This document shows, piece after piece, positions 23,182 to 42,039 of a stretch of DNA of 64,000 bases. The notes beneath the pieces are model-generated. The model ran no database searches, was not told the DNA's origin, and was given only the letters and a program-made list of their open reading frames with translations. The stretch's first letter is position 1, and each line of letters starts with the position of its first letter. The stretch is from Planctomycetia bacterium (GTDB lineage: Bacteria > Planctomycetota > Planctomycetia > Pirellulales > UBA1268): assembly GCA_026401035.1 (NCBI GenBank), contig JAPLNR010000051.1, positions 15,114 to 79,113 on the forward strand, written 5' to 3'. The translations under genes and the position numbers were made by a program.

Positions 23182-24732
23182 TTGAAGACTCATACCCCTT
23201 CGTTTTTCGCACTCGCGCTCTGGCTGGCCTGCTTCACGAGCACGGGATACGCGCAGGCGGGCAAGGGCAAGGCGGACGATTGGCTCGTAAGCAAGACACC
23301 TCCCGAGAAGCAGGCCCCCCCGCGGATGATCTCGGCAGCCGAATCCGACACGCCCGCGCCGGGGCCCCCGGCCCTGCCCGAGACCCGCAACGAGCGAAAA
23401 AAACCGCCGGCACCGGAATACCTCGTCGGCAAGGTCGTCTGGGGACAGGCCGCCACGATCGCCGACGAATCAGTACAGGACTGGAATCTCGCGGCCCGTG
23501 ACTGCGAACAACTGCTGGCCGGTGGAAAGCTGCTCGGCCTGCCCTTTCACTGGGGGCCGGTGAAGCTCGCCGAGTTCGACTTCGATCCCGCCCGGCTTCC
23601 AGCGCTCCTTGTCAGCGGCGTGCGGCCGCTGCGGTTCAGCCCGCAGCAGATCGAGCGGCTGCGGGAATACGTGCTCGCCGGGGGCATGATCTTGATCGAC
23701 AGCGTCTATGGCTCGCCCTACTTCGAGGAGTCGGCCGTCGCGCTTTGCAACGAGCTCCTCCCCGAGAGCCGCCTGCGGCCGCTCCCGGCAGACCATCCCC
23801 TCTATCACATGGAGGTCGACGTCGAGAAGGTGCAGTACGCCTTCGGGCCCAACGACAGTCGGCCGCGTCTCGAAGGGGTGTATGTGGGTAGCCGCGTGGG
23901 CGTGCTGCTCTCCAGGCAGGGGCTCGGTTGCGGGTGGCACGGCGACCTGGCCGTGTTTCCTGAACTGAAAAAACGTGGGCTCGTCCCGCAGGCCTACGCG
24001 GTGCAGTCGGCCAAAGACATCGGCGTCAATCTAGCTGCCTACATCGTCGGCTACGGGCCGGTGGGTCAGATCGAGGGAGAGCCGGAACTTTTCGGTCTGA
24101 TCGACCAGAAAGATCCGACGGCCGAGTTCGTCTTCACGCAGCTCGTGCATGACGGTGCCTGGAACGTCCACCCCAACGCCTCGCGGAACCTGCTCCTGCG
24201 GCTCAAGGCGAAGTCGGCGATCCCGGTGAACATCAAACGCGTCCCCATCGATCTGGAGAAGGACGATCCGCCGGATGCTCCGTTCCTCTTTCTCTCCGGC
24301 CTCGACGACTTTTCCCTGTCGCCCGAGGCCCGCGCAAAACTCCGCGGCTTTCTCGACGCCGGCGGGCTGCTCGTGGTGAACAACGGCCTCGGGCTGGCGA
24401 CCTTTCAGCAGGCCTTCGAACGCGAACTCGCCGAACTTTTGCCGGGTGCCAAGCTCGTGCCTCTGCCGGCTGAGCACCCCATTTTCTCGGCGCTCGCGCC
24501 GGTCGGCAGCGTGGAATACACGCCCGCGCTGGCTGCCACCGCCGGCGGTGAACTCGGCGGCAGACCGCTGCTTCTGGGCGTGGAGAGAGATGGCGAACTC
24601 AAGGTCGTCTTCAGCCCTTTCGACATGGAAGCGGGCTGGAACGACTGCGACTACCCGCTCTCCCGGGGCTACGAGCCGGCCAGTGCATTCGCGCTCGGCA
24701 TGAACATCATCGCCCATGCAATGACACGCTGA
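23182..24732 (+). CDS. Secreted protein with two DUF4159-like domains (first gene of the MoxR operon)
   Basis: 516 aa. TTG start immediately after an in-frame TGA, followed by a good signal peptide (KTHTPSFFALALWLACFTSTGYAQA). Two copies of the pattern P.l..sG...f.ls..e...Lr.yl..GG.l..d...HPi. Confidence 0.7.
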   Translation: MKTHTPSFFALALWLACFTSTGYAQAGKGKADDWLVSKTPPEKQAPPRMISAAESDTPAPGPPALPETRNERKKPPAPEYLVGKVVWGQAATIADESVQDWNLAARDCEQLLAGGKLLGLPFHWGPVKLAEFDFDPARLPALLVSGVRPLRFSPQQIERLREYVLAGGMILIDSVYGSPYFEESAVALCNELLPESRLRPLPADHPLYHMEVDVEKVQYAFGPNDSRPRLEGVYVGSRVGVLLSRQGLGCGWHGDLAVFPELKKRGLVPQAYAVQSAKDIGVNLAAYIVGYGPVGQIEGEPELFGLIDQKDPTAEFVFTQLVHDGAWNVHPNASRNLLLRLKAKSAIPVNIKRVPIDLEKDDPPDAPFLFLSGLDDFSLSPEARAKLRGFLDAGGLLVVNNGLGLATFQQAFERELAELLPGAKLVPLPAEHPIFSALAPVGSVEYTPALAATAGGELGGRPLLLGVERDGELKVVFSPFDMEAGWNDCDYPLSRGYEPASAFALGMNIIAHAMTR

Positions 24733-24794
24733 CGAATTGACTCGTTGCCCCCGCCGTGCTGGCTCATCACACCCCGTCCATCACCGAGAGCACC

Positions 24795-25877
<1,083 letters not shown>

Positions 25878-25914: not shown

Positions 25915-26808
25915 ATGCCCGACACCTCGCCTTTCACGTTTCTCCCGAGCCAGTTCGCAGACCGGCTGCGCGGCCTGGGCCTCTCGGTCCGGCGGCCCAT
26001 GGACGGTGGCCGCCAGGGCCTGCATCGCTCGAACACGTTCGGCGCGAGTGTCGAGTTTGCCGAATACCGGATGTATTCGCCCGGCGATCCGATCCGTCGC
26101 ATCGACTGGCCGGTCTACGCGCGAACCGATCGCTACATGATCCGGCAGTTTCACGAGGAGGTGAGCGTCCGCTGCCACGTGCTCCTCGACCAATCGGCGA
26201 GCATGGCCTATGCGAATCCGGCCGGCGGGCCGGCAAAGATCGACTTCGCCCGCTACCTGGCTGCCGGCACGATGTTCGTCATGGCGGGGCAAGGCGACGC
26301 AGCGGCGCTCCTGACCTTCGACGATGAACTCCGTGACGTCTTCCCGCCGGCCTCGTCGCTGGCCACGCTCAAGCCGCAGCTCGAGCGACTCGATGCCATC
26401 GCGGCGACGCGGCCGGGGCGGATCGAGGCCTGCCTGCACGCGGCCGCGGAACGGATCGCCGGCCGCTGCATGGTGGTCGTCATCTCGGACTTGCTCGAGG
26501 AGCCGCAGAGTGCGCTGGCCGGGCTCGGCCACCTCGTCCACGATGGCAAGGAGGTGACCATCTTTCACGTCCTCGATCCCGCCGAGCTCACGCTGCCGAT
26601 GTCGGGCCTGTGGGAGATCGACTCGCTCGAGGCCGAGGGCCGCATGACAGTCGATATCGGCCAGATTCGATCGTCGTATCTGGATGCCGTTCGTGACTGG
26701 CTGGACGAGCTGCGGACCGGCTGCGCGGCCCGAGGCATCGACTACCAGCTTGCCGACACGCATGGCGATCCGTTCGAGGTGCTCCGCGCGAGGTGCAGCC
26801 GGAGATGA
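25915..26808 (+). CDS. DUF58 family protein (vWA-like, MoxR partner)
   Basis: HRSNTFGASVEFAEYRMYSPGDPIRRIDWPVYARTDRYMIRQFHEE is the DUF58 signature. VLLDQSASM is a DxSxS MIDAS-like motif. Confidence 0.85.
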   Translation: MPDTSPFTFLPSQFADRLRGLGLSVRRPMDGGRQGLHRSNTFGASVEFAEYRMYSPGDPIRRIDWPVYARTDRYMIRQFHEEVSVRCHVLLDQSASMAYANPAGGPAKIDFARYLAAGTMFVMAGQGDAAALLTFDDELRDVFPPASSLATLKPQLERLDAIAATRPGRIEACLHAAAERIAGRCMVVVISDLLEEPQSALAGLGHLVHDGKEVTIFHVLDPAELTLPMSGLWEIDSLEAEGRMTVDIGQIRSSYLDAVRDWLDELRTGCAARGIDYQLADTHGDPFEVLRARCSRR

Positions 26809-28976
26809 CGCATTCCCTAACCGCCCTCACGCCATCGATGCTGTGGCTCGTGCCACTGGCCGCGCTGCCGATTGTGTTTCACCTGCTGCTCAAGCGGAAG
26901 CAGCAGCGCACCGTGTTTTCGACGCTGATGTTCTTTCAGCGGGTCGATCCGCGGCTGTCGTCGCGGCGACGGCTGCGAGAATGGCTCTTGTTGGCGGCCC
27001 GTGCGGCGCTGATCGCGCTACTGATGCTCGCCCTCGCGCGGCCGCTCATCGGCCTCCCTGGCCGGATTCCTGGGCTCATGGACAACGCCGCCGTCGTGCT
27101 CCTCGTGGACAACTCGGCGTCGATGCGGGGCGGCGCGGCGGGTGTCCGGCGATCGAAGCTCGACGTGGCGCTCACGGCCGCCCGTGCCATGGCGATGTCG
27201 CTGCCCGCTCGCACTCCGACCGCCGTGGCCCTTACCGTCGCCGATGCGAAGGTGGGCATCGACGATGCGGTCACAGCCGATCGCGACCGCGTGCTCGAGC
27301 AACTCGCCGCGATCGCGCCGACCGAAGCCGCAGGCGCTGCGACGGCTGCGGTGGCGGCCGCCGCCCGGCTGGCTCTGCAGGGAGGCCGCACGGGAGGCGT
27401 CGTGCATGTCTTCACCGACCTCCAATCGGCGGAGTGGTCACAGGCTGCGACCACTGGCGAAGCGCTGCCCGCATCCATCCGGCTCGTCTTTCATCGGATC
27501 GCCAGCGAGTCCGTCGGTGCCGACGTGGCCTTCACCACGGCGGCGATTCGCACGCGGTGGCCGCTGGCCTTGCAGCCGGTGCTCTTCCGTGCCGAACTGG
27601 CCAATAGCGGGGCGGAGCGAGCGCAGGTGCATCTGCATTCCGTCGATGACGCGGGCCGCTCCACGACCCGCGCCATCGATCTTGTCGCCGGCGGCCGTGA
27701 GGTGATCGACCTCGCGCTCGAGCCGAATAGCGCCGGCACGCACTGGGTGCGGTGCTGGGTGGAGGGAGACGGGTTCGTCGGGAACAACGAGGCCGCGGCC
27801 GCCTATGTGGCGGCCGAGCGAGCCAGCGTTTTTTTTCTTGGCGAGCTGTCGCGGTATGGCGCACTGCCGCTGGCCGTCGCGCCGACGAGCGACGCGGCGG
27901 CGACCGCGCTCGTGGCCGAGGCGGTGCCGGCCGACGGTCTGGTGGAGGCGCTCGCCCGAAGGCCCGTCGCCGTCGTGGCAACATGGTCGGAGCTTGCCGG
28001 CCTGACCGATGCCGGCGCGGCGCTCGAGGTCTATGTCACCGCGGGAGGCCGGCTCGTGGTGGTGCCCGATGCCGACGCGAGCGACGGCGACGCGGTCGCG
28101 GGCCGGCTGCCGGCGTGGATCGGCGCGACGCCCGGCCCGGTGGCGAGGGCGGTGCTCGCCGACGCCGAGATCACGCTCGCCGGCCCTCGCGAGCCGGGGA
28201 TCGTACCCGCCAACACGGGCCTGCCGTTCTGGTCACGGCTGCGAAGCGGCGGCACGCTGGCATGGAGTCCTGTGCGGGTGCGTCGCGTCGCGCCGCTGGA
28301 AGCCGAGAAGCCCGGGGAAGTCGCCGCGACGCTCGATGACGGCCGGCCGGTTCTTGTTCATCGTGCGCTCGGACGCGGTGCCATCACAGCCTGCGGCATC
28401 GCGTTCGACAGCCGCTGGACAACGCTCGCATCCGCACCGCACGTCGTCGTGCTCGTCCACACGATGATCGCCGGTGGCGATGACGAGGGCCAGGATGGGA
28501 TCGAGATTGAGGCGGGGGCGGTGCCAGCCGCATCTGGTGCGGCGGCAGCTGAAACACTCGCGATTATTCCGGCGGTGGGCGACATCCCCGGCTGGTCGGG
28601 CCGCCCGGCGGATACGCCCATCATCCCTCGAGCGGCGGCTGGCCTCGTGCGGGCCGACGGCGCTACGGCCGGGCCGAACGACGACCAGAAGCTTCAGCAG
28701 TGGACGTTTGCCGTCCGCGGGAGCGCCGCAGAAGGAGTGGCGACCTATCTCGACGGCGACCGTGTGCCCGCAGCCGGCAGCCTCGAACACGTTGTGGCCC
28801 CGCTCTCCGCAGCAGATCCCACTACGAGCGGCCGCCAGCTCGCGAGCGGCACTGCCGACCTGTTCACTCCCCTTCTCTTGCTCGCCTTTCTGGCGATGGT
28901 GGCCGAAGGCCTGCTCGGCGCGGCCCGGCCGCCCAAGCCCGTGGTCCGCGGCACGGCCGCTGGAGGGCCGCGATGA
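26805..28976 (+). CDS. BatA-like membrane protein (aerotolerance-regulator N-terminal domain + vWA-like domain)
   Basis: The ATG at 26805 forms an ATGA overlap with the DUF58 stop. N-terminus WLVPLAALPIVFHLLLKRKQQRTVFSTLMFF, MIDAS-like VLLVDNSASM, C-terminal TM segment LFTPLLLLAFLAMVAEGLL. Confidence 0.8.
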   Translation: MTHSLTALTPSMLWLVPLAALPIVFHLLLKRKQQRTVFSTLMFFQRVDPRLSSRRRLREWLLLAARAALIALLMLALARPLIGLPGRIPGLMDNAAVVLLVDNSASMRGGAAGVRRSKLDVALTAARAMAMSLPARTPTAVALTVADAKVGIDDAVTADRDRVLEQLAAIAPTEAAGAATAAVAAAARLALQGGRTGGVVHVFTDLQSAEWSQAATTGEALPASIRLVFHRIASESVGADVAFTTAAIRTRWPLALQPVLFRAELANSGAERAQVHLHSVDDAGRSTTRAIDLVAGGREVIDLALEPNSAGTHWVRCWVEGDGFVGNNEAAAAYVAAERASVFFLGELSRYGALPLAVAPTSDAAATALVAEAVPADGLVEALARRPVAVVATWSELAGLTDAGAALEVYVTAGGRLVVVPDADASDGDAVAGRLPAWIGATPGPVARAVLADAEITLAGPREPGIVPANTGLPFWSRLRSGGTLAWSPVRVRRVAPLEAEKPGEVAATLDDGRPVLVHRALGRGAITACGIAFDSRWTTLASAPHVVVLVHTMIAGGDDEGQDGIEIEAGAVPAASGAAAAETLAIIPAVGDIPGWSGRPADTPIIPRAAAGLVRADGATAGPNDDQKLQQWTFAVRGSAAEGVATYLDGDRVPAAGSLEHVVAPLSAADPTTSGRQLASGTADLFTPLLLLAFLAMVAEGLLGAARPPKPVVRGTAAGGPR

Positions 28977-31141
28977 ACCACCTCGTCTGGCACCAGCACC
29001 TGCCTGCGATCGTCACGGCTGCCATCATGCTCGGCGTCGCCTGGTGGGCGTGGGTCATCTTCACCCGGCTGCGGCTGCGGTTCGATCAGCGGTCGAGCCT
29101 GATCCTCCTCCTGCCCCGGCTGGCGGTGGCGGCCCTGCTGCTTGTGGCGCTCCTCGATCCGTGGCTGCGAACGACGGCGCCGCCGACCGAAAAGCCGGGG
29201 CTCCTCCTCCTGCTCGACGACTCGAAATCGATGGCTGTTGCCGACCGTCCAGACCGGCCGCGGCTCGTCCGTGGGCAGGAGGCGGCTGCCGCGCTCACCA
29301 AGCAGCTCGCCGACGTCGCCCGGATCGAGACGACTGAGTTTGATGGCGACATCCCCGCACTGTGCGCCAGCCTCGGCCCGCGGGTGGCGACGAGCGGCGT
29401 TGCGGCCGCGGTGCTCGTCACCGACGGGGGTGATGAGCCGGTGCGACCGGCCGCACTACCAGTGCCGCTGCATGTGCTCGCCGTGGGTAGCGATCCCAAA
29501 GACTGGAACGACGTCGCCATTTCCGAGATCGAGGCGCCCGAGCGCATCGATGTTGGCACCGGCTTTCGCCTCACAACGCGGCTGGTCGCGCGGGCCGCCG
29601 CCGCATCATTCCGGCATCAGCTCTCCGATGTTGCGGTCACGGTTGAGGAACGGATCAAAGGCAAGTGGAAGGCGCTGCGGTCAAAGAAGGTCGATCTCGG
29701 AAGCGGGGCCGCTCAGGTGGTGTTCGACATCCCTGCCGACGCGGGGAGCAGGGCTGCGACGACGGCAGACGAAGGCCCCGCCGCTCGAACATTCCGCGTG
29801 GCAGTGGCCGAGGTGGAGGGCGAACTGTCACCGCTGGACAATGCCCGCGAGTTCGCCGTGGCAGTCGGCAGCCGGCGAATCCACGTGCTCTTCTTCGCCC
29901 GCAGCCTCGACTGGAACTTTTCCCAGATCCGCGCCGAACTCAGACGCGATCCCGATGTCCGCCTCACCGCCCTCTATCGCAAGACGCCCCAGACCATGGC
30001 TCTCGAGGGAGACCGGCGCCAGGGCGACGACGTGCTCGAGCAAGGGATGCCCGAAGACGCCGCGGTGCTCGATCGTTACCGTCCCGTGATTCTCGGCGCG
30101 TTTCCGGCGGAGGAACTGTCGGAGTCACAGGCGGTCGCGCTGCGGGAGTATGTCGACCGCGGCGGTGCGGTCGTGATCCTCGGCGGCGCCGACGCGATGG
30201 GGGGTGGCTGGTGCGACTCGCCGCTCGAGCCGCTCCTGCCATGGAAGCCAAGGCGCGAGGCAGCGGCGGTCTTGACCGGCGAATTTCCGGTCGTCGTTCC
30301 CGCACCGGCCCGTGATCATCCTGCCATGCGGCAGGCCGCTGAGGCGCTCGCCGCCGGCCCCGCCCCCACGCTGGCATCGCTGAACGACGTGGGCGATCTG
30401 AAGCCCGGCGCGATCCCGCTCCTCGATGTGTCCGCCGACGGCGCGCAGCGGAGCGTGGTCGCGATCGAGCCCTACGGCCGCGGTCAGGCGGTCGGCGTGG
30501 CCACCGACACAATGTGGCAATGGCGGCGGCGGTCCGGCGCGGGCCGGGAGGCTTTTGGCATTTTCTGGCAGGAGCTCGTGCGGTCGCTCGCCGGATCGAG
30601 TGAGTCGGCCGGCGGCATCCGCGTCGAGTGGGATCGGCCGAGCTACCGCCCATCGGAGGCGGCAGTGGCCACCGTCTCCGTGGCGACCAGGCGGGATACT
30701 GCTGCATTCGTTCGCGGCCACGTTGTCGTCGAGGGGGAGGAACGGCCGGTGACCGTGAGCCCCGTGCCCGGTGTTCCCGGAAAATGGACCGTCGCCGTGA
30801 AGGTCGGGCCACGGGCGCCGCACGTGCTCGTGATCGAGGCAGTGGCGGGCTCCGACGTGCTCGCGCGGCTCGAAAGCGGGATCGTGGTGCAGCCGCGACC
30901 AACGGAGGGCTCACGGCTGGAGGTCGATGTGCCATTTCTCACCGATCTGGCCGGCCGGTCGGGGGGCACGGCCACGGTCGAGGACGTGCTGCCCATCGCT
31001 CGCGCAATCCGCGGGCAGCTCGCGCAGTCGGCGGTCGCCGTCGAGCAGCCGCTCGTGCAGAAGGCCTATGTGTTTCCCGCGATCGTGCTGCTCGTGCTCG
31101 TGGCCGAGTGGCTGGTGCGGAGACGATTCGACCTGGTGTGA
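28973..31141 (+). CDS. Membrane protein with a vWA-like and a GATase1-like (ThuA/DUF1355-like) domain
   Basis: The ATG at 28973 (ATGA overlap) gives MNHLVWHQHLPAIVTAAIMLGVAWWAWVIF, with two N-terminal TM segments. LLLLLDDSKSM (DxSxS), EYVDRGGAVVILGGADAMGGG, and a C-terminal TM segment. Confidence 0.7.
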   Translation: MNHLVWHQHLPAIVTAAIMLGVAWWAWVIFTRLRLRFDQRSSLILLLPRLAVAALLLVALLDPWLRTTAPPTEKPGLLLLLDDSKSMAVADRPDRPRLVRGQEAAAALTKQLADVARIETTEFDGDIPALCASLGPRVATSGVAAAVLVTDGGDEPVRPAALPVPLHVLAVGSDPKDWNDVAISEIEAPERIDVGTGFRLTTRLVARAAAASFRHQLSDVAVTVEERIKGKWKALRSKKVDLGSGAAQVVFDIPADAGSRAATTADEGPAARTFRVAVAEVEGELSPLDNAREFAVAVGSRRIHVLFFARSLDWNFSQIRAELRRDPDVRLTALYRKTPQTMALEGDRRQGDDVLEQGMPEDAAVLDRYRPVILGAFPAEELSESQAVALREYVDRGGAVVILGGADAMGGGWCDSPLEPLLPWKPRREAAAVLTGEFPVVVPAPARDHPAMRQAAEALAAGPAPTLASLNDVGDLKPGAIPLLDVSADGAQRSVVAIEPYGRGQAVGVATDTMWQWRRRSGAGREAFGIFWQELVRSLAGSSESAGGIRVEWDRPSYRPSEAAVATVSVATRRDTAAFVRGHVVVEGEERPVTVSPVPGVPGKWTVAVKVGPRAPHVLVIEAVAGSDVLARLESGIVVQPRPTEGSRLEVDVPFLTDLAGRSGGTATVEDVLPIARAIRGQLAQSAVAVEQPLVQKAYVFPAIVLLVLVAEWLVRRRFDLV

Positions 31142-31155
31142 CGTTCGCGCGAAGC

Positions 31156-32421: not shown

Positions 32422-35400
32422 GCACGGTGGCCTTTGATCCCCTGTCGGGCGGCTCGATCGCGGCGGTCGTGGACCGCGCCGGTCGGAGCCTCGCCTTGGC
32501 CGCGGTGCTCCGTGGCGGCTGCCGCTGGCTGGCGTCGGCAGGCGGCCTCGTGATCGTGCTTGTGTGGCTCGACACGGTCCTGCGACTGCCGGCAGCGTTG
32601 CGGCTGGTGCTCTCGATCGGCGCCGTCGGCTTCATCGCCGGCACGCTCTGGGCCTGGGTGATCCGGCCGGCCGTACGAAGGCAGACGCCCGAGTCGATCG
32701 CTTTCTTGCTCGAACGTCGCTACGGGGTCCGCGACAACTCGCTCGTGGGGGCGCTTCAGTTCGAGCGGCTGAACGCAAGCCTCGACGCCGATGGCGTGCA
32801 GCGCGCCTTCATCGGCGAGACCGCACGGCTGGGCCGTGGGGTTATCTCGGCCGTGAGCGTGAAGGACCTGTTCGAGCCGCGGATGCTGCTCACCTGGGCG
32901 GCGGTGGCGGGCCTCGTGGCCGTCGCGTGGATGGCCTCGCTGACGCTCGCGCCCGGCTGGAGCGGCACTGCCTTCAAGCGGTTTCTCCTGCCACTGGCCG
33001 ACGTGCCTCCGGCGGCGGCCGTCGAAGTCGTGGTGCGGCTGCCCGACGGTGATGTCGTGCCGCAGGGGGCGGATGTACGGGTGGAGGTCGAGCTGCGAGG
33101 CGCGGCGGCGCGCCGCCGCTATCCCGACATCCTGTGGGCAGAGCGCAGCTGGGTGGATGCCGACGACTCCAAGGCGGTGCGGGCCACCACTGAGCCGGTC
33201 TTGGGGCAGGATCATGTTTTTACCCACACGCTCCGCGGTGTGCGGCAGGATGTGGCGATCCGCGGGCTGGCCGAGGGCACGTATTCGCGTCAGTCGCGGG
33301 TGAGGGTGGTGCCGACGCCGCTCATCGCGTCGAGTTCGTTTGCCATCACGCCTCCGGATTACACCGGCCGCGCGACGGTGCCCACAGCCGGGCCGCCGCA
33401 GCCGCTCGAGGCGCTCGTGGGTTCACGGATCGCGCTGGCCGTCGAACTCGACCGTCCCGTCGCCGGGCTTACCTGGCGAATCGGCGACGCCGAGGTGGCC
33501 TGCACCGGCGCGGGCACGACATGGCAGGCGGAAGCCACGCTCGCATCGGCGGAATCCTATGAACTGACGGCGACGATCGCCGATATCGACATGCGGACAT
33601 CTGTGGCCCGCGGCCGCGTGGCCTGCCGACAAGATCAGGCTCCCGACGTACGGTTCGTCACCGATCGGTTCTCACACCGCCTTCACCTTGGCGACAGCCT
33701 CCCCGTGACCGTTGTGGCATGCGACGATCAAGGTCTCCTGGGGCTCGCACTCTCCGTCCGGGCCGCAGCGGGAGGCAGCCCGACGACGGTCCGCCGGTGG
33801 GACTATCCGCCGCCAGGCCGCAGTGACAAAGTGGCTGAAAGCACGGCGGTGATCGCCTCGCCCGACCTGTTCGCCGTGGGCCGTGCATATGTCATCGAGT
33901 TGGCCGGCCACGATGCCCGTCCCGACGCTCCCCCGGCCGTGTGCAAGCGGCCGCTCCTCGTCGAGATCGTGCCTCGACCCACCGGCGAAGCCGCCGCCGA
34001 CCCGCAGCTCGCCGGATTTCTGGCCGCACTCGATCGAGCGATCGCGCTGCAGAAGCAGGCCCTCGAGGCGACACGCTCGTTTGCGACGAATCTTCCGGAG
34101 GTGTGGCTCGACCTGTCGCGGAATCAGCGGCCCGCCGCGGAGGTCGATGTGCTGCTCGATCAATACCGCGCGGCGGTGCTCACGCCACAGCGGTCAGTAC
34201 ACGAGTCCATCCTCACGGCGGCGGCAGCAACCGGCGCCGCTCCTCGCGCGGCCAAACAGCTCCGCGAGCTTGCCGACACCGAGGCCATCGCGGCAGGCGA
34301 CGGCGCCGACGCGCTCACTGTGCCAGCCGTCGCCGTGCAGGTCGACGGTGAGCCTGCGGCGGTCGTCGATATCGATGGAGGAGGTCGGACGACGCGGGCA
34401 CAGTTCTCACCGCGGCAGGCCCGCTGGCTTGCGGTCGTGGCCCGGCATGCCGCCGGCTGGGCCGAGCGGATCCAGGTGCCGTTGCTCGCGACACACGCAT
34501 TCGCCGACGGTCCGCCGCTCGACCGCGTTGCCTGGAGGGTGGCCGATGTGGTGCCCGACGCCGCGGCCAACGCCGTGCGCGAGGCGCTGCCCGCCCGCGG
34601 GCAATGGATCGTCACGGCGCGGCCGCCGTGGGGCGTCGTGATCGATCTCGGAGCCGATACCGACGTCGCCGAGGTGTCGCTGACCAACGCAGGGCCACTC
34701 CTCCACGACGTGGAGTTCCGCGTGGGCACCGGGGCGGCCCCGCAACTCGTCCGCGGCGAGCGGACCGAAACGATGGTCGCGCGGCAGATCCGGCTGCTCG
34801 AGCCTGCGCAGGCGGCGCTCTATGCCGAGCTTGTGCTTCTGCGCGGCAGCGCGCTCGAGCGACACGACGACGCGGCGGCTCGTGAGCCCGACGCTCCCGG
34901 CGTCGAGTCGGCGCCGCTTGCCGACGCGATGGAAAAGGAGGTGCTCGCCGACGTCGCCGAGTGGAAAAAGGATTTTGAGCGCACGGCGGAACGCCGCAAG
35001 GCTCTTACCGAGCGGCCGGCCGAGGATCTCAGCGATGCAGACCAGGAGGAGCTCGCGCTCATCGGCATCGAGAAGCATCGACAGACGCGGAGAATTCAGC
35101 GGCTCTCCGAGGATCTCACCGACAGCCTCGCGATGGATAAGGGCGACACCCAGCGTCGCACACTTCGCACGCGCACCGTCGGAAAACTCGCCGATCTCGC
35201 CGACCTAGCGGCGCTCGCCGCCCAAAAGGCCGAGAAGCCGGAGACGACCTGGAAACTCGACGCGGAGGCCATCAAGGCGGCCAACGAGCTGGCGCCTGAT
35301 TCCGGAAACCCAAACGCATCGAGCGATGCCACCCGCGGAAAGATCGAGTCTGATGAAGACAAGCTCGACCCGTCGAGCATGGCGCAGCTCGCCGAGATCG

Positions 35401-36224
35401 CTGACGTGAACCTCCCGGAGCTCTCGAAGAAATGGGAAAACTTCACCGCCGAAGCCGACCGCAGCGCTCCTTCGCCGGGAATGAGCAGCGGCACCGAGGC
35501 GGTCGCCGGGGGCGTGCGGTCGCACAACTCGGCATCGGGCCGCCCCGGCGATCGCACGCCCGATCAGCAGCAGCGGCACACTGGGCGGTCGATCGTGGGG
35601 CGGACCGCCCAATCCGACGGGCAGTTCGTCGGTGACACCGCGGCACAGATGCCCGACGACGAGGTGCTCGCTCCCGATCGCGACTCGGGCACTGCGCTCG
35701 AGGGGGGCAAGGTGGTCGATGACGAGTCGTCGAGCGAGGCGACATCGACCGGGCTCGGAAGAATGACCAACGCCATGACGGAATTCGGCGGCTCCGGCAA
35801 GCTTCCTCCCGATCTGCTCAACAAGCTGCAGAAGGTGGCCGGCGAGGCGACCGAGTTATCCAACGACACCAACCGGCTCGTGCTGCGGCTTGAAGTCTTG
35901 AACCTGCCGACCGACGAACTGCGGACGGCGGTGCGCGGCGTCGAGCAGGCGGCCGGCGAGGCGGCTCGCGGCAACGCGAAGGCACTCAGACAGGCTGTCG
36001 ATCGGGCGGCACAGGCTTTTGATCGGGGCCGCGACGCCGTCGCGCGGGAGGTCGCCCTCGTTGCAGCGGCTCGCCAACGCGACGAGGCACGGCAGGTGGA
36101 GTGCCGGTTCGACACGCGGCTGCCAATCCCGGCAGCCTACGACGCCTGGGCCGCCGCCTATTTCAAGGCGCTCGCCGAACGCGCGGCCGATGGCCAGAGC
36201 GAACCACGGGAGCAGCCTCGATGA
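32418..36224 (+). CDS. Large (1268 aa) membrane protein with an acidic, low-complexity, helical C-terminal third
   Basis: The ATG at 32418 (ATGA overlap). Two N-terminal TM segments followed by FLLERRYGVRDNSLVGALQFER. Long beta-rich middle, then a D/E/K/A-rich region. Ends with the conserved-looking IPAAYDAWAAAYFKALAE. Confidence 0.7.
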   Translation: MSTVAFDPLSGGSIAAVVDRAGRSLALAAVLRGGCRWLASAGGLVIVLVWLDTVLRLPAALRLVLSIGAVGFIAGTLWAWVIRPAVRRQTPESIAFLLERRYGVRDNSLVGALQFERLNASLDADGVQRAFIGETARLGRGVISAVSVKDLFEPRMLLTWAAVAGLVAVAWMASLTLAPGWSGTAFKRFLLPLADVPPAAAVEVVVRLPDGDVVPQGADVRVEVELRGAAARRRYPDILWAERSWVDADDSKAVRATTEPVLGQDHVFTHTLRGVRQDVAIRGLAEGTYSRQSRVRVVPTPLIASSSFAITPPDYTGRATVPTAGPPQPLEALVGSRIALAVELDRPVAGLTWRIGDAEVACTGAGTTWQAEATLASAESYELTATIADIDMRTSVARGRVACRQDQAPDVRFVTDRFSHRLHLGDSLPVTVVACDDQGLLGLALSVRAAAGGSPTTVRRWDYPPPGRSDKVAESTAVIASPDLFAVGRAYVIELAGHDARPDAPPAVCKRPLLVEIVPRPTGEAAADPQLAGFLAALDRAIALQKQALEATRSFATNLPEVWLDLSRNQRPAAEVDVLLDQYRAAVLTPQRSVHESILTAAAATGAAPRAAKQLRELADTEAIAAGDGADALTVPAVAVQVDGEPAAVVDIDGGGRTTRAQFSPRQARWLAVVARHAAGWAERIQVPLLATHAFADGPPLDRVAWRVADVVPDAAANAVREALPARGQWIVTARPPWGVVIDLGADTDVAEVSLTNAGPLLHDVEFRVGTGAAPQLVRGERTETMVARQIRLLEPAQAALYAELVLLRGSALERHDDAAAREPDAPGVESAPLADAMEKEVLADVAEWKKDFERTAERRKALTERPAEDLSDADQEELALIGIEKHRQTRRIQRLSEDLTDSLAMDKGDTQRRTLRTRTVGKLADLADLAALAAQKAEKPETTWKLDAEAIKAANELAPDSGNPNASSDATRGKIESDEDKLDPSSMAQLAEIADVNLPELSKKWENFTAEADRSAPSPGMSSGTEAVAGGVRSHNSASGRPGDRTPDQQQRHTGRSIVGRTAQSDGQFVGDTAAQMPDDEVLAPDRDSGTALEGGKVVDDESSSEATSTGLGRMTNAMTEFGGSGKLPPDLLNKLQKVAGEATELSNDTNRLVLRLEVLNLPTDELRTAVRGVEQAAGEAARGNAKALRQAVDRAAQAFDRGRDAVAREVALVAAARQRDEARQVECRFDTRLPIPAAYDAWAAAYFKALAERAADGQSEPREQPR

Positions 36225-38467
36225 GAGCCATCATGAGTCGGTGTGCCAGCATCATCACGCTGCTGACGCTCGCGGCCTTCGCCGCGTCGTCGGCGGCCGA
36301 GCCGCTTGGGAGTCTCGAGGGCGTGGTCGCCGGTTCGGTGCGGCTCAGCCCCGACGGACGGCGGATCGCCATGGTTATCGAGCAGCCAGCCGCGCCGCCG
36401 CAGGGCGGTGGCCGGCAGGTCGTGGTCGATGGCGAGGCCTCCGGCGGCCTGTTCGACGAGATCGCCACGGGCATGCCGCTCTTCAGCAATGACGGCAGCC
36501 GAGTTGCCTTCGCCGCCCGCCGAGGCGACAAGACGTTCGTCGTCGACGACGGGATCGAATACGAGGCAGGCTCGATCACCGAGGATGGCTGGCCGGTCGG
36601 CAATCTCGTGATCGCGCCCTTCGGGCAGGCGGTGCTCTGGCAGATTCGTGGTGGCGGCAAGACACAGCTGGTCGTCAACGGCCGTGTCGTCGATGCCTTT
36701 AACGAAGCAGTGGGCCTCGAGCAGCAAAAGACCTGGGGCGTGCTCGGGCTCGTGTTCGATCCCACCGGCCAGAGCTTCGCGTTTCGCGGCGTGCGCGACG
36801 GGGCGATGGTGCCGGTGGTCGGGCTGTCACGCCCGGCCGCCGATCACGCGGCCACCCCGCTCGCGATCGGTCCCGCGTTCGCCTCGATTGGCTCGGGCTC
36901 GCCGATTCCCGTGCCCGGGCGGGGGCCACACGCCTTCGCCTTCATCACGTGCAGTGAGTCGAACGACGCGAAGACGCAAGCGCACGAGGACGTGGCCGCC
37001 CTCGACACGAGCCCCGCGCCGCCGGCTGTCTTCGGCAGGTTCGATGAAATCGGTCGCGACACGCTCGCGTGGACGCCCCGAGATCCCGCGAACGTATGGT
37101 TTACAGCCCGGAAGGGCGAGGGCTGGACCGCGGTCGTGCGAGGGAAGCCGGGGTCGTTCTACGCCGATGTGGGGCCAGTGAACGCACTGCCCGACGGGCG
37201 GGCCTTTTTTCTCGCGCAGCGGGACGGCAGGATCGTGCCCGTGCTCGTCGGTCTCGACGCTGCTGCCCGCCAGGAGCTGCCCGGCGGCGAAGGCGTGCAG
37301 CATGCGGCGCGGTTCGCGAGCGACCGCGGTGAGCGGATCGCCTACGTGGTCACGGCGAAACGCGGCTCCCGGGTGGTGAGTGTGCGGCCCGGTGATCCTG
37401 CTGTAGCGGCGGCTCCGCAAGCGGAGTCGTCGCCGGAGTATGGCGGCGTCGATCCCGCCCGCGTCGTGCTCTCGGCCGACGGCGGCCGGCTCGCGTTCGT
37501 CGCCCAGCGGAAGGGACGGGAGCTGGCGGTGATCGACGGTGTCGAGGGGGCTGTCTACGACAAGGTCGGCAGGCCGGTATTTTCGAGTGACGGTGGCCGT
37601 GTCGCCTACCGCGCGATGGCAAAGGGCTCCGCGACGGTCATCGTGGACGGCCGCGTGAGTGAGCACTACGACGAGGTGGCCATCGACACTCCGCGGTTCG
37701 TGCCGCACCGCGGGCAGGTCGTGTATGCGGCCCGCACGGGTCCGGCGTGGCGGGTGTATGTCGATGGCAAGCCGGGACCAGACTGCGAGCGGCTGGTGAG
37801 CCGGATCGAGCTTCCCGACGACGGCACCGGGCGAGTCTTCTATGCGGCTCGGTTCCTTGACCGCGATGGCGTGACGGAAGCCGTGGTGGTGGATGGCCGG
37901 CGGGCCGCCGAGTTCGACGAGATTTTCACGGCGGCCACGCGGCGGCTGGGTATCGACGGCACGGCGACATTCCTGGGCCGCCGCGGCCGCAACATCGTGC
38001 GCGAGACTCTTGACCTGCCGGGCGTTTTTCTGGCGTCGATTCCCGTCGCGGAGGGCAAGGCCGACCGGGTGCGGGCCAACCTTTCGCTGCAAAACAAGCC
38101 TCTTTGTCTCGACGGCCGGCAAGGTGGCGGCGTTGGCATGCTCGCCCCCGCCGAGGCGGCCTGGGATATCGCGGGTCTGCGGGACCGCTTCCCCGGCAAG
38201 ATGCTCAGATTTCACGCAGTGACCGGCATCGACACCGGCGGCATCGACGCCAAGACCGCCTCGGGCACAGTCGTGCTCGAAGTGTCGGTGGACGGCGAGC
38301 GGCTGGCGACGTCGCCGCCGCTTTTGTGGGGGCAAACGCATGTGTTTGATGTTGTGGTGCCGGACCAGGCCGCACGGCTGGAGCTCGCAGCGACGAGCGA
38401 CAGCGGGCAGATGATCACATGGATGCACGCAGCCATCGTGCCAGTCACTCAGGAACAGCGGCAATGA
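36221..38467 (+). CDS. Secreted repeat protein (748 aa), possibly with a C-terminal carbohydrate-binding-like domain
   Basis: The ATG at 36221 (ATGA overlap), signal peptide IITLLTLAAFAASSAAEP. Reiterated ~45-aa module vDG......yDev.....FS.DG.RvAy.Ar.g. Confidence 0.7.
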   Translation: MRAIMSRCASIITLLTLAAFAASSAAEPLGSLEGVVAGSVRLSPDGRRIAMVIEQPAAPPQGGGRQVVVDGEASGGLFDEIATGMPLFSNDGSRVAFAARRGDKTFVVDDGIEYEAGSITEDGWPVGNLVIAPFGQAVLWQIRGGGKTQLVVNGRVVDAFNEAVGLEQQKTWGVLGLVFDPTGQSFAFRGVRDGAMVPVVGLSRPAADHAATPLAIGPAFASIGSGSPIPVPGRGPHAFAFITCSESNDAKTQAHEDVAALDTSPAPPAVFGRFDEIGRDTLAWTPRDPANVWFTARKGEGWTAVVRGKPGSFYADVGPVNALPDGRAFFLAQRDGRIVPVLVGLDAAARQELPGGEGVQHAARFASDRGERIAYVVTAKRGSRVVSVRPGDPAVAAAPQAESSPEYGGVDPARVVLSADGGRLAFVAQRKGRELAVIDGVEGAVYDKVGRPVFSSDGGRVAYRAMAKGSATVIVDGRVSEHYDEVAIDTPRFVPHRGQVVYAARTGPAWRVYVDGKPGPDCERLVSRIELPDDGTGRVFYAARFLDRDGVTEAVVVDGRRAAEFDEIFTAATRRLGIDGTATFLGRRGRNIVRETLDLPGVFLASIPVAEGKADRVRANLSLQNKPLCLDGRQGGGVGMLAPAEAAWDIAGLRDRFPGKMLRFHAVTGIDTGGIDAKTASGTVVLEVSVDGERLATSPPLLWGQTHVFDVVVPDQAARLELAATSDSGQMITWMHAAIVPVTQEQRQ

Positions 38468-41400
38468 GCGTCACACGGAGGGCAGCCTGTGCGGTCTGGA
38501 TTCTCATGGCCAGCTTCATAGCGCCGACGGCGCCGGCCGCGGAGCAGACTGAATGGCACGTGCCTGAGGCATCGCGGCGGTTTGAAGTGTCGCTCGACCT
38601 CGTGCAGCAGGCTGCGGTGGAGGAGTTGCGCAGGCTCGGTGGCGGCATTCCGCTCAGCCGACTGGCTGGCTCCTTTGCCGACAGCCGCTCATGGCGAGCA
38701 ACGCCCGATGTCTTCCTGGCCGATCTGCCCGCAAAGGCATCCACGCTCACCTTCGACCCGCGTTACAAATGGCTCGTGCCGGGGATCGGTGCGGGGAAAC
38801 CCGACACACTGGAAAAGCAGTTGGGCGGCGAGGGCACCTGGGCGATCAAGCCTGAATACCGGTGGTTCGTGACGAGCCTCGCCGCGCAGATCCGGGTATG
38901 GATCGACGGGCAGCCGGCTACGAGCGAGACGGGGGCGCCGGGGTGGGCCGCCACGCAGGTTCGCTACCGGATTCCGCCGGGGGCAAAAGAGCTCAAGGTC
39001 GTGACAACGGCGGCATCGGGGCCCGTGCGGCAGATGGGGTTTATCACGCGGCCTCCGGCCGTGGCCGAGGCGTGGATCTGCCTGGGCGACGGTATGACCG
39101 CGGCAGATCTCGTGCCGATCGTGGTGGCCGTCGATGGCAGCGGCTCAGGCAAGGAGGTGGGCGCGTGGTCGCCGCCAGCCGCGGAGGCAGCTCCCTGGCA
39201 GGTGGTGTTTGACGCATCGAGCGGCGCCGAGCGGTTTCATGTGTATGCCGTCCCCAAGCAGGCCAAGCGGGCAGGTCCGAAGTGGACGCCCGCAGTTGGC
39301 GTCTGGCTCCAGGCGCGGTCGCTCGATCGTTACGACCCGAAGATCAACGACCCGAGAGGCTTTCTCGCCGCCTGGAAGCGCGGCCGGCCGCTCGGCACCG
39401 CCCGCGTCGAGGGCACGCTGCTCGACTGGTTTCCGTTCACGCTCGATGGCAGCGTGCGGCGGCATGGGGGCATGGCACCGCCGCCGGAGCTATCGCTTGC
39501 CCGCTGGTACACGCACCTCGACCTGCCGGGCGATGGCGTTTACCAGTTCCGAATGCGGGGTGTGCAAGGCGCCACGCTTCTGGTCGATGACACGCCGGTG
39601 GTCGTCAACAATGTCGCCAGCGGCGGCAAGCCCAAGGAGGTCGTGGACGTCGAGCTGAAGGCGGGCCGCCACAAGGTGGAAGTGCAGCAGTGGTGCCAGG
39701 GGGCGGGATTCATGCTGTCGGCGGCGCTGGCGGTCCCGGGGCAGCCGTGGCGAGCGACGCTGGGCACCGTGTATTCGTGGGAAGGTCAGGGATTCGATTT
39801 CGGCGACACCGTCGCCCCCACGATCGTTCAGGGCGTCGAACAGCTCGGCACAAACGGTGCGGCAAGCGGCCGGCCGCTGCTCACGCTCGACTGGACGGGC
39901 GATCGACTGGGCCACTGGCCGTGGACCGCGTATGCGGAGGGCCAGGCCGAGGATCTCGTGGGTCTTCACTTCCGCGCAACGCTCTCTCCTCCCCAGAATG
40001 GCGCGGTGTTTCGCTTCACGTTCGACGACGGGAGCGTCGCGGAGGGGCAGGACGTGAAGTATCTCTTTCTGTCGCCCGGTATTCGTACGGTTCGCTGCGT
40101 GGCGGTCGATGCCGACGGCCGCACCATCGCCGAGACGACCGCGCGGGTGCGGGTGGAGGCAAATCGCTGGACGCTCCCCGTGTTTGATCCGCGAATGATC
40201 CGCCGTGATCTCGGCTTCGAAGAGTCGGTGCCGAGCATCGTCGCGCGGGAGCCGCTCTTCGCCACGATGCCGATCGCCGATCTCGTAAACGTGCATGCCT
40301 GGACGGGCCAGGGCAGGCATCGCGATCTGCAGCGCACGGCGGGCGCCGCGCTTGCCGCGCGGCTCGACGAAGCGCTGGCCTCGTGGAAGGCCGACGCCAC
40401 ACTCTTCCACGCCGATCTCCTCGCGGAGCCATGGTCGCAGCAGTATGCGGCAGCTGGGCGGGCGTATAAGAGCGTGTTCGACGCCGAGCCTCCCGGATCG
40501 CCGCGACGGATTCAGGCGGCGCTGGCGCTGGCTCGTCTGCTGGCCACGCACGAGGGCAAGGCGGCCGAAGCCGCATCGCTCCTCGAGGCTCTCGCCAAGG
40601 AGCGGCTCCCGGTGGACTGGCGGAGCGGATGGGAACTGGCCCGCGATAGCCTGCACCATCCCAGCCCCATGGCGGTGCCGGTGGCGGAGACGCTCGCTGC
40701 GAAACGCCTGGAACCGCTCGCCTGGGGGCCGCTCACCATGCCGCTCAACTGGCATCTCTTTGCCGGGGCGGCCTGGAACATGGGCGCAGCGGCTTTCGAC
40801 CGCCGGCTCGATCCGGCCTCCGCCCGCTCGGCGTTGGTGGAGATCGATGTCAAAGGCCGGGAGCGGGTTGCCATCTGGTGCGAGGGCAGTTCTCCCCGCG
40901 TTGCCGTGCTCGAGCCGAGGTTCGTGCTCGACGACGGCAGCGAACAGCCCTTGAAGGCGGAGGACTTCGCGCTGTACGCGGCCGCGTGGGGCCGCTGCGG
41001 ACAAGACGCGATCACGGTGGACAAGCGACCCCGCACCGACGGCTTCGGTGCCGTGCCGCGGTATGCGAGCGGCGGAAACGTGGCGGTTCCATCGAAGGCT
41101 CGCCGGTTCCGTGCCACCGTGGTGCTCGACGACGCGAGTCCGGCGAAACTTGCCTGCCGGGTGCGAGTGGCCGCCACCGAGACCGACCGGTGCTATTGGT
41201 TTCGCAAGTCGTTCGACGTTGCCAAGGCCGACGCCGGCCGGCCACTAGCCGTCACGCCAGGCTCGTTCACGATCATGCTGTCTGGCAATCGGTTTCTGAA
41301 GGAGGGGGCGGTGTGGTTCGATGGAAATTTCCTGGGCCAGCCCGCCGATGGTGCCTGGACCGTGCCGGCGGCCGCAGTCACCGCGGGGCGACATGAAGTC

Positions 41401-42039
41401 ATGGTGCTGTTGCAAGATCGGCGCGTGCCCCCTTATGCCACCGCGCCCGGGGCCTTCACCGACATGCGGGTGTTGGTGCCCGGGCCCTACGAGGGCATCG
41501 ATATGGCCAGCCGGGTGGCCGCCACCCTCGGCACATGCTTGCTCGCTGCAGCGCGGACCGAGGAGGGATTGAAGATTCTCGATCGGCTGGCTCCTCCCGA
41601 CGCGCGTTGGCCGCCCGACGCCCGCGACCGGTCCCGCGTGGTCGGCCAGCTCAAGCGGGCCCGGCAACTCGTGGCCTCGGGCGACGACGGCCCCTCCTAC
41701 GCGATCGACGCACTCGAGGAACTGGCCGTGCGGTGGCCGCGGCTGCGGCTTGATCCCGAGTGGCGCACGACCATGCTCGAGGCCCACGTGGCCCGCGGTG
41801 AGCATCGCGCCGCCGATCCGGTAGCCCACGAACTTCGTGCCACCGCAGATCTCGCGGATCCGCTCCGCCGCCGCATCCTGCTGGCCTCCGTCCGCATCAC
41901 CGCTGCCCGGGGCGACATTTCCGCAGCTCGCGGTCATGCCGCCGACTTGGAGAGGAACTGGCCTTATGCCGACGAAACGCTGGCGGCGGCCGACCTCTTC
42001 AACGTGAAAAAGCGGCGTGGCCTTCAGGTCACCCCGTAG
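38464..42039 (+). CDS. Secreted 1191-aa protein with PA14-like and PKD-like domains and a C-terminal TPR-like helical region
   Basis: The ATG at 38464 (ATGA overlap), with a signal peptide. PA14-like GDGVYQFRMRGVQGATLLVDDTPVV...VELKAGRHKVEVQQW. PKD-like FRFTFDDGSVAEGQDVKYLFLSPGIRTVRCVAVDADG. Confidence 0.75.
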   Translation: MSVTRRAACAVWILMASFIAPTAPAAEQTEWHVPEASRRFEVSLDLVQQAAVEELRRLGGGIPLSRLAGSFADSRSWRATPDVFLADLPAKASTLTFDPRYKWLVPGIGAGKPDTLEKQLGGEGTWAIKPEYRWFVTSLAAQIRVWIDGQPATSETGAPGWAATQVRYRIPPGAKELKVVTTAASGPVRQMGFITRPPAVAEAWICLGDGMTAADLVPIVVAVDGSGSGKEVGAWSPPAAEAAPWQVVFDASSGAERFHVYAVPKQAKRAGPKWTPAVGVWLQARSLDRYDPKINDPRGFLAAWKRGRPLGTARVEGTLLDWFPFTLDGSVRRHGGMAPPPELSLARWYTHLDLPGDGVYQFRMRGVQGATLLVDDTPVVVNNVASGGKPKEVVDVELKAGRHKVEVQQWCQGAGFMLSAALAVPGQPWRATLGTVYSWEGQGFDFGDTVAPTIVQGVEQLGTNGAASGRPLLTLDWTGDRLGHWPWTAYAEGQAEDLVGLHFRATLSPPQNGAVFRFTFDDGSVAEGQDVKYLFLSPGIRTVRCVAVDADGRTIAETTARVRVEANRWTLPVFDPRMIRRDLGFEESVPSIVAREPLFATMPIADLVNVHAWTGQGRHRDLQRTAGAALAARLDEALASWKADATLFHADLLAEPWSQQYAAAGRAYKSVFDAEPPGSPRRIQAALALARLLATHEGKAAEAASLLEALAKERLPVDWRSGWELARDSLHHPSPMAVPVAETLAAKRLEPLAWGPLTMPLNWHLFAGAAWNMGAAAFDRRLDPASARSALVEIDVKGRERVAIWCEGSSPRVAVLEPRFVLDDGSEQPLKAEDFALYAAAWGRCGQDAITVDKRPRTDGFGAVPRYASGGNVAVPSKARRFRATVVLDDASPAKLACRVRVAATETDRCYWFRKSFDVAKADAGRPLAVTPGSFTIMLSGNRFLKEGAVWFDGNFLGQPADGAWTVPAAAVTAGRHEVMVLLQDRRVPPYATAPGAFTDMRVLVPGPYEGIDMASRVAATLGTCLLAAARTEEGLKILDRLAPPDARWPPDARDRSRVVGQLKRARQLVASGDDGPSYAIDALEELAVRWPRLRLDPEWRTTMLEAHVARGEHRAADPVAHELRATADLADPLRRRILLASVRITAARGDISAARGHAADLERNWPYADETLAAADLFNVKKRRGLQVTP

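Follow-up and report, generated by a model that had tools for sequence, protein, structure and literature searches.

A MoxR/DUF58/vWA gene cluster conserved across PVC bacteria: a candidate cell-envelope complex

The DNA considered here (the window) is a stretch of 64,000 nucleotides from a Planctomycetia bacterium (GenBank assembly GCA_026401035.1, contig JAPLNR010000051.1, positions 15,114 to 79,113; all coordinates below count from its first letter). At 23182-42039 it carries nine reading frames, denoted g1 to g9, all on the + strand and read in one direction, as established from an open reading frame (ORF) listing and by direct translation. They encode a secreted DUF4159 protein, a MoxR-family AAA+ ATPase, a DUF58 protein, two membrane proteins with von Willebrand factor A (vWA)-type domains and four further proteins (g6 to g9) that are predicted to be exported or membrane-bound. 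Eight of the nine families occur together in Planctomycetota, Verrucomicrobiota and Lentisphaerae, all of them Planctomycetes-Verrucomicrobia-Chlamydiae (PVC) bacteria, and we propose that their products may form a single complex of the cell envelope.

A preliminary description of the locus had claimed a co-directional run of nine genes linked by five ATGA start/stop overlaps. Both claims are borne out: translation places the overlaps at 26805, 28973, 32418, 36221 and 38464, and the three non-overlapping junctions measure 14-62 nt, varying with the starts chosen for g2 and g6 (Table 1). Overlaps recur in independent genomes, so the tight packing is above chance. The g3/g4 junction overlaps by 4 nt in 35 of 42 loci, g4/g5 by 1 or 4 nt in 43 of 54, g6/g7 overlaps in 20 of 50 and g7/g9 by 4 nt in 12 of 26; where g9 lies in front of g1, the gap is 20 nt or less in four of six. 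The cluster is a tightly packed nine-gene operon and not an artefact, and its spacing suggests that the products may be made at fixed stoichiometry from a single transcript. An AGGTGA Shine-Dalgarno-like motif lies 3 nt 5' of the TTG start of g1, and the gene upstream of the cluster, for a 3-keto-disaccharide hydrolase, ends at 22907. A sigma-70 consensus scan upstream of g1, which is uninformative for a planctomycete, found none.

Table 1. Coordinates of the nine genes and of the flanking intergenic regions in the window.
Feature	Position	Strand	Remarks
Upstream intergenic	22908-23181	+	274 nt; presumed promoter region
g1	23182-24732	+	TTG start, 516 aa
g2	24756 (GTG) or 24795 (ATG) to 25877	+	
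g3	25915-26808	+	
g4	26805-28976	+	723 aa
g5	28973-31141	+	722 aa
g6	31156 (ATG, 421 aa) or 31174 (ATG, 415 aa) to 32421	+	public gene call starts at 31174
g7	32418-36224	+	1268 aa
g8	36221-38467	+	748 aa
g9	38464-42039	+	1191 aa
Downstream intergenic	42040-42277	+	238 nt; terminator-like hairpins at 42127-42140 and 42190-42208

Core proteins g1 to g5

The g1 product has a signal peptide, ending in ...GYAQA, and two DUF4159 domains (164 bits in two stretches, Pfam). It heads the cluster in at least 35 PVC loci; a tblastn search of plasmids with g1 gave no match. g2 is a MoxR-family AAA+ ATPase with matches to AAA_3 (PF07726, 216 bits) and AAA_lid_2 (PF17863, 60 bits), a Walker A motif GVPGLAKT and a Walker B motif LLADEINR. 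AAA_3 with lid and Walker motifs, an adjacent DUF58 gene, membrane vWA partners and tetratricopeptide repeats (TPR) in the g9 orthologues together indicate the MRP (MoxR-proper) type; it also scores above threshold on bpMoxR (PF20030, 39.8 bits). g3 is a DUF58 protein (127 bits; VWA_2, 30 bits) whose metal ion-dependent adhesion site (MIDAS) motif reads DQSAS, with DxSxS at residue 92. Hydrophobic-segment analysis found neither a signal peptide nor a transmembrane (TM) segment in g3, which would be a cytoplasmic vWA-like co-chaperone.

g4 is a BatA-type membrane protein (BatA, PF07584, 58 bits; TIGR02226, 54 bits; VWA_2, 37 bits). Its TM segments lie at residues 11-29, 60-78 and 686-704; the N-terminal pair is split by a very basic 30-residue loop, and between this pair and the C-terminal TM segment lie the vWA domain (DNSAS) and then a long stretch of the C-terminal part. 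g5 is laid out in a similar way, with two N-terminal TM segments, a vWA-like domain, a GATase1-like domain and a C-terminal TM segment. g5 itself has no Pfam match (PF07090 only at E 0.32), and the GATase1-like assignment comes from its relatives: homologues reach GATase1_like (PF07090) at 29 (locus L001), 22 and 19 bits, and the family profile matches PDB entry 3rht, annotated as a '(GATase1)-like protein', with E 4.6e-8. VWA_2 matches in g5 homologues are weak (E 0.007). The MIDAS of g5 is intact (DDSKS...TDGGDE), with D82, S84, S86, T150 and D151 invariant in a five-sequence alignment. The same alignment has no invariant Cys or His column that could supply a Cys-His-Glu triad in the GATase1-like domain, which is therefore probably non-catalytic.

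The DxSxS signature is present in all three of g3, g4 and g5. g4 and g5 also have in common a basic loop between the N-terminal TM helices and a basic tail after the C-terminal one, which by the positive-inside rule would place their large domains in the periplasm. This predicted orientation agrees with experiment on the BatA-type protein BB0173, whose vWA domain was shown to be periplasmic (PMC5700661).

The proteins g6 to g9

g6 has no match in Pfam or NCBIfam. Its AlphaFold2 model (predicted local distance difference test, pLDDT, 68) comprises an N-terminal helix followed by beta-rich domains, and a Foldseek search of the PDB retrieved no fold at E <=0.001, the one feature recognized being a cystatin-like subdomain at the C-terminus. 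g6 is predicted to be a beta-rich protein that is exported or anchored in the membrane. A word-indexed search returned eight matches to the family, and the contigs of the 31%-identical relatives keep the same gene order; g6 sits between g5 and g7 in at least 50 loci.

In g7, two TM segments precede a conserved helical stretch of about 75 residues, predicted to lie in the cytoplasm, and then come a third TM segment and three tandem Ig-like domains. Beyond these lie a lineage-specific insert, a coiled-coil acidic region, a Gly/Ser-rich block (residues ~1032-1130), which is the most conserved block of the family, and a C-terminal ...Y..YF.ALA motif. Within the segment between TM2 and TM3, residues E92, E99, N107, F115 and E116 are invariant or nearly so. 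An AlphaFold2 model of residues 1-570 (pLDDT 83) shows a helical TM/cytoplasmic bundle, the three Ig-like domains in tandem and a long helix, and Foldseek relates this model to generic multi-Ig ectodomains and tandem Ig-like modules. In the PDB the family profile finds only coiled-coil matches, and these fall in the C-terminal half.

Direct searches do not identify the family. Neither g7 nor 41 orthologues have a direct match in Pfam, and none reaches DUF4175 (PF13779) at E <=0.01; g7 has no match to NCBIfam TIGR02302, and DUF4175 was not detected in a scan of seven long family members. A weak g7 relative, P0012, does reach DUF4175 (35.4 bits, cut-off 27.3), and its family, from Isosphaeraceae, is named 'DUF4175 family protein' by NCBI and UniRef. 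When 42 g7 orthologues were compared with 16 of the Isosphaeraceae DUF4175 proteins by hhalign, the two profiles aligned over 541 columns with a probability of 100% (E 5.1e-45). By this profile comparison g7 is a remote membrane protein of the DUF4175 superfamily. The family is large, since a profile search returned 4149 cluster representatives at E <=1e-3, a count obtained with a profile of a shortened alignment (the full profile exceeds 1200 positions).

Two further features of g7 were noted. The C-terminal 268 residues (35418-36221) give a sub-threshold match to VMAP-M0, the middle region of vWA-MoxR associated proteins (E 0.012, 16.6 bits, cut-off 25.9). Helical sequences may match here by chance, or the helical C-termini of DUF4175-like proteins may be related to the VMAP regions of MoxR-vWA ternary systems. 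The insert at residues ~640-830 (34335-34907) is shared only with locus L003, is absent from most orthologues and has no Pfam match. Other long members of the g7 family have sub-threshold F5/8-type-C matches at a similar position; a discoidin domain was considered for the insert and rejected, since it lacks both a Pfam match and any similarity to these inserts of its relatives.

g8 and g9 are both secreted, and sequence searches of the PDB gave nothing useful for either. g8 combines PD40/TolB-like propeller repeats (PD40, E 1.3e-10) with a C-terminal NPCBM domain (33 bits). g9 contains PA14 (32 bits), and its PKD_4 (23.9 bits, cut-off 27) and PKD (21.2 bits, cut-off 23.5) matches both fall below the curated cut-offs. 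TPR signals in g9 itself are weak (best E 0.069), and TPRs are predicted because its C-terminus aligns with orthologues that bear them. In an alignment of 21 sequences (A6), three of them g8 proteins, NPCBM is found in 21, PKD in 16-17, TPR_19 in nine and PA14 in seven. On these domain matches g9 is a member of a recurrent NPCBM-PA14-PKD-TPR family. It has in addition an insert of about 300 residues (~715-1013; 40606-41502) that is common to L003 only, has no Pfam match and does not resemble the F5/8-type-C inserts found in other family members.

The preliminary description had given domains or general features for the nine products and had left the last four without an assignable function. 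The domain calls stand, by Pfam, by homologues or by PDB 3rht, except that the TPR of g9 is not seen directly. Lack of an assignment still holds for g6, which has no fold match, but no longer for g7 and g9, which can be placed in the families given above.

Conservation across PVC genomes

Scanning a genome collection with the g5 family profile gave 68 loci, on which the synteny mapping is based, and hidden Markov models (HMMs) of the nine families were then mapped onto all of them. All 68 lie in metagenome-assembled genomes of PVC bacteria: Planctomycetota (including Phycisphaerae and Sedimentisphaerales), Verrucomicrobiota, Lentisphaerae, Victivallales and Kiritimatiellae. None is more than 39% identical in the g5 scan. 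The order g1-g2-g3-g4-g5-g6-g7 is kept wherever the contig is long enough. g9 follows g7 in Planctomycetota (g1...g7-g9) and precedes g1 in Verrucomicrobiota and Lentisphaerae (g9-g1...g7); L005 has no g9 after g7. In one verrucomicrobial locus (L052, JAZKIL010000002.1) the order is permuted to g2, g7, g9, g3, g4, g5, g6, g1, with all eight genes contiguous.

The gene that follows g7 in most loci was at first taken for g8, an assignment that was rejected when BLASTP identified it as the g9 orthologue (E 1e-26 to 1e-31 between g9 and the gene 3' of g7 in L001, L002 and L035). The g9-like protein of Verrucomicrobiota and Lentisphaerae covers positions ~220-867 of the 876 in the HMM in one piece (E 1e-41 to 2e-88). 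Outside the window, g8 has orthologues only in L003, where the gene is placed as in the window, and in L008, where it precedes g1 but is read from the other strand; g8 is thus a lineage-specific accessory gene. As judged from synteny, the conserved unit is eight families, g1 to g7 and g9, to which g8 has been added in the lineage of the window only. The proposal of a nine-gene unit therefore holds for the compact MoxR/DUF58/vWA cluster but not for g8, and the suggestion that the downstream genes are linked to MoxR/DUF58 was upheld by the synteny test, with g6, g7 and g9 all syntenic in about 70 PVC loci. The literature searched contained no account of an eight-gene form of this kind in PVC bacteria, with separate double-DUF4159, g6, DUF4175-like and NPCBM-PA14-PKD-TPR proteins. 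That Kamneva et al. had reported it as an operon conserved in PVC bacteria was not confirmed: PMC3542564 and PMC3000692 mention none of MoxR, DUF58 and BatA.

Flanking genes vary across the loci examined and include hydrogenase maturation genes, GFO/IDH oxidoreductases and a sulfatase. In the window the G+C content is about 67% and drops to 63% just past the operon. A PSCyt1/PSCyt2/PSD1 gene comes next downstream, starting at 42278, and the region comprising 42278-45487, 46707-50057 and 49382-51523 encodes two PSCyt1/PSCyt2/PSD1 giants (one with Laminin_G_3) and a DUF1501 protein, a classic planctomycete pairing. Large proteins with DUF7133 and cytochrome c are encoded at 14422-17472 and 55397-59938; the second (1513 aa) also contains ThuA, another GATase1-like fold, and HEAT repeats. 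Several ORFs of 400-680 aa have no Pfam match (911-2944, 5959-7167, 7164-8789, 8656-10314 and, on the - strand, 52971-54494 and 45463-47079), and some of the long ORFs of this kind may be spurious shadow ORFs of high-GC sequence.

A candidate envelope complex and its relation to known systems

We consider that the locus encodes one co-functioning envelope complex that is conserved in PVC bacteria, and assign this reading a probability of about 0.5. The idea of an envelope machine assembled by a MoxR/vWA chaperone, already raised in the preliminary description, is the best available account of the data. In the arrangement that we propose, MoxR and DUF58 would be cytoplasmic, g4, g5 and g7 would be anchored in the inner membrane with their large domains in the periplasm, and g1, g6, g8 and g9 would be exported. 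Only the short basic loops of g4 and g5 and the helical segment of g7 between TM2 and TM3 would face the cytoplasm. A MoxR hexamer and DUF58, acting as a MIDAS co-chaperone, would bind these cytoplasmic elements and drive assembly or remodelling at the expense of ATP. On the other side of the membrane the MIDAS sites of g4 and g5 could clamp acidic motifs of g1 and g6 and the acidic coiled-coil part of g7, which would itself form an extended stalk across the periplasm. g9, and here also g8, would tether the assembly to cell-wall or surface glycan through NPCBM, PA14 and PKD, with TPR serving as a protein dock. The cluster probably does not encode a catalytic pathway. By analogy with a rhizobial operon discussed below, its most likely specific role is in envelope integrity or in cell shape and morphogenesis under stress, a suggestion that we put forward tentatively.

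Several points weigh against this proposal. g6 is without a recognizable fold and no role can be assigned to it. Only short cytoplasmic loops connect the ATPase in the cytoplasm to vWA domains in the periplasm. That NPCBM and PA14 bind glycans is annotated at the level of the family, and the N-terminus of g9 in the window falls below the Pfam threshold for NPCBM. In L005, the lack of g9 after g7 indicates that the distal module is not obligatory. The functional analogy assumes that the Sinorhizobium cluster described below is orthologous to the characterized Rhizobium operon, and the Bat-type clusters of Leptospira gave no envelope or stress phenotype (PMC3557215).

The secreted proteins allow a different reading, in which the locus specifies an apparatus for capture, uptake or adhesion of polysaccharides, with g8 and g9 binding glycans that the membrane complex holds or moves. 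This would suit the glycan-degrading lifestyle of PVC bacteria and is in keeping with the presence of NPCBM in every sequence of A6, with the frequency of PA14 and PKD there, with the separate NPCBM protein that closes the Isosphaeraceae-type cluster (see below) and with a window neighbourhood rich in BNR/Laminin_G, 3-keto-disaccharide hydrolase, GxGYxYP and SASA. The carbohydrate context is, however, not conserved, the flanking genes being different in every locus examined; transporters, glycoside hydrolases and TonB-type components are missing from the cluster, in alphaproteobacteria the core functions with no glycan-binding partner, and L005 manages without g9. We judge a glycan apparatus unlikely.

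A second possibility confines the functional unit to g1-g5, perhaps extending to g7, and regards g8 and g9 as unrelated secreted glycan-binding proteins that are co-transcribed by chance. The absence of g8 from nearly all orthologous loci, the shift of g9 from behind g7 to in front of g1 and its absence after g7 in L005 all speak in favour of this. Yet a g9-family gene is adjacent and co-directional in two arrangements across phyla, and both arrangements often have tight junctions (the g7/g9 overlap and the short g9/g1 gap given above), which would be hard to explain except by functional linkage. This restricted unit appears rather improbable.

The cluster might also be a Bat-type system for aerotolerance or oxidative stress that, like batA-E of B. 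fragilis, would help the cell to tolerate oxygen, for example by exporting or maintaining periplasmic reducing power. g4 has the BatA N-terminal domain together with vWA and, as is usual in Bat loci, comes after MoxR and DUF58; g9 represents a family with TPRs, and bat-like genes of Borrelia respond to oxygen (PMC5700661). Against it stand the lack in every member of a detectable BatD (PF13584) or SH3/TPR BatE-type protein and the presence of DUF4159, GATase1-like, g6 and DUF4175-like proteins, which lie outside the Bat operon as described. The cluster is moreover found in anaerobic (Sedimentisphaerales, Kiritimatiellae) as well as aerobic PVC lineages, and deletion of all bat genes from Leptospira biflexa caused no oxidative-stress phenotype (PMC3557215). 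A Bat-type function is, on balance, distinctly unlikely.

Highly improbable is a MoxR-vWA conflict, defence or membrane-proximal proteolysis system (including the beta-propeller type) in which MoxR and vWA regulate deployment of an effector: such systems are reported in planctomycetes (PMC7159879), and the bpMoxR score of g2, the propeller-type repeats of g8 and the VMAP-M0 signal of g7 are all reminiscent of them, but the bpMoxR match is a minor overlap of the 216-bit AAA_3 match, g8 is secreted and lineage-specific, Pfam reveals no effector, peptidase, effector-associated or nucleotide-signalling domain and PADLOC nothing at all in the nine proteins, and the cluster is syntenic throughout phyla, its scores graded by taxon, a distribution that looks vertical and is the opposite of that of conflict systems, which are mobile and patchily distributed.

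Within the envelope-complex reading a more far-reaching version can be formulated. The eight families could constitute an undescribed, PVC-specific machine, anchored in the inner membrane, spanning the periplasm and powered or assembled by MoxR, with g7 as a DUF4175-like stalk, an NPCBM/PA14/TPR head that engages the wall or outer layer, and g6 as a new fold. Such a machine might underlie one of the envelope traits of PVC bacteria (envelope architecture, the enlarged periplasm, macromolecule handling at surface pits, or shape and division). In this complete form the idea is speculative, and we think it improbable.

Few bacterial gene neighbourhoods that lack a mechanism are as widespread as the MoxR/DUF58/BatA clusters. 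The known part of the present locus, an MRP-type MoxR/DUF58/BatA core, introduces no new principle; what is new is the stable union in PVC bacteria of a four- or five-gene core with g6, a DUF4175-like stalk protein and an NPCBM-PA14-PKD-TPR protein. The outcome is a parts list of eight subunits with a predicted topology, which can be tested. If such a complex does shape or stabilize the envelope of PVC bacteria, which is unusual, it would be relevant to questions long asked about their cell biology. Regardless of its role, the annotation of thousands of 'hypothetical' proteins is clarified, as the number of g7-like cluster representatives indicates.

Among known systems, g1-g5 most closely resemble an alphaproteobacterial MoxR operon. 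Sinorhizobium meliloti (L074, CP090106.1) encodes MoxR, DUF58, a 937-aa protein with BatA_N at its N-terminus and DUF4159 at its C-terminus, and a vWA-like/GATase1_like fourth gene, and the genes are packed with overlaps. The PVC HMMs for g2, g3, g4, g1 and g5 match these proteins colinearly (MoxR 363 bits, DUF58 52 bits), so that g1-g5, which consist of the same five domain families, are a split version of the four-gene operon. Whereas BatA_N and DUF4159 are joined in one polypeptide in Sinorhizobium, DUF4159 is separate, duplicated, secreted and encoded first in the window, and the Sinorhizobium operon lacks the g6, DUF4175-like and NPCBM/PA14/TPR partners. DUF4175 was considered as the product of the fourth rhizobial gene and rejected; in Sinorhizobium this gene encodes the vWA/GATase1-like homologue of g5. 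In strain Ak57 it (L074, 13663-16403) is interrupted, falling into at least two to four frames without a protein accession, which points to a pseudogene or to a frameshift in the assembly. The 3.7-Mb record CP090106.1 is labelled 'plasmid pSymB' and yet carries the chromosomal housekeeping genes for L25, pth, ychF and the CCA-adding enzyme.

The L074 operon is probably of the same type as RL3499-RL3502 (cmdA-D) of Rhizobium leguminosarum. As cited in PMC3893208 and PMC5700661, RL3499, the MRP-type MoxR that heads this 'broadly conserved operon', is required for an intact membrane and for cell morphology; as quoted in citations of Vanderlinde et al. 2011, RL3499-RL3502 are also needed for growth on complex media.

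The preliminary description had likened g1-g5 to the Bat operon of Bacteroides. This is correct for MoxR, DUF58 and BatA, but BatD and BatE features are absent, and by domain content the architecture is closer to that of the Sinorhizobium operon. The Bat loci of Bacteroides fragilis and of spirochaetes (MoxR, DUF58, BatA-BatE) share with the window an MRP-type MoxR and DUF58 followed by a BatA double-TM vWA protein, and in both a TPR protein is associated and the vWA domain would be periplasmic, as in BB0173 (PMC5700661). The window adds to this set DUF4159, GATase1-like, g6, DUF4175-like and NPCBM/PA14 proteins, and g4 and g5, at ~720 aa, have long extra periplasmic regions compared with BatA-type proteins of ~330 aa such as BB0173 (PMC5700661). 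Pfam searches of the nine proteins and their orthologues gave no match to BatD (PF13584) or BatE (TPR+SH3). The function of the Bat loci is itself unresolved, given the Leptospira deletion mutants. Compared with BatB, the second membrane vWA protein of the Bat loci, g5 has two N-terminal TM segments and a MIDAS motif but weak VWA_2 matches in its homologues, and its additional GATase1-like domain is not known from BatB.

The DUF4175 proteins of Isosphaeraceae (Singulisphaera, Tundrisphaera; the P0012 family) are the closest counterpart of g7. Their N-terminal ~550 residues comprise three TM segments and Ig-like domains, as in g7, and both proteins have a long coiled-coil, low-complexity C-terminal half, but the C-terminal halves did not align. 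In L004 the gene comes after MoxR-DUF58-BatA-vWA and before an NPCBM gene, so that the partnership of DUF4175-like and NPCBM proteins recurs in a differently built cluster, with other small intervening genes and with no DUF4159 or g6 found in the stretch examined. At 2462-17327 of L004 (ENA ERZ26871208 contig_9437) the genes are MoxR, DUF58, BatA (376 aa), a 351-aa protein, vWA (802 aa, matching g5 weakly), a pair of small ORFs, DUF4175 (1314 aa), two proteins of 305 aa and 368 aa, the second with faint prenyltransferase/squalene-cyclase-like matches, and NPCBM (425 aa).

In pairing a MoxR AAA+ ATPase with a MIDAS vWA protein that recruits clients, the window also resembles RavA-ViaA, CoxD-CoxE, NorQ-NorD and midasin. 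Studies of the MoxR clade (PMC7159879) regard the vWA partner as a co-chaperone that binds substrates in a metal-dependent manner, with remodelling driven by MoxR. Chaperone pairs of this kind mature soluble or respiratory enzyme complexes, whereas the window encodes no enzyme client and mostly membrane and periplasmic structural modules. On the envelope-complex reading, the Bat operon, the rhizobial cmd operon and the DUF4175 proteins, which are usually treated apart, would fall into one family of envelope systems.

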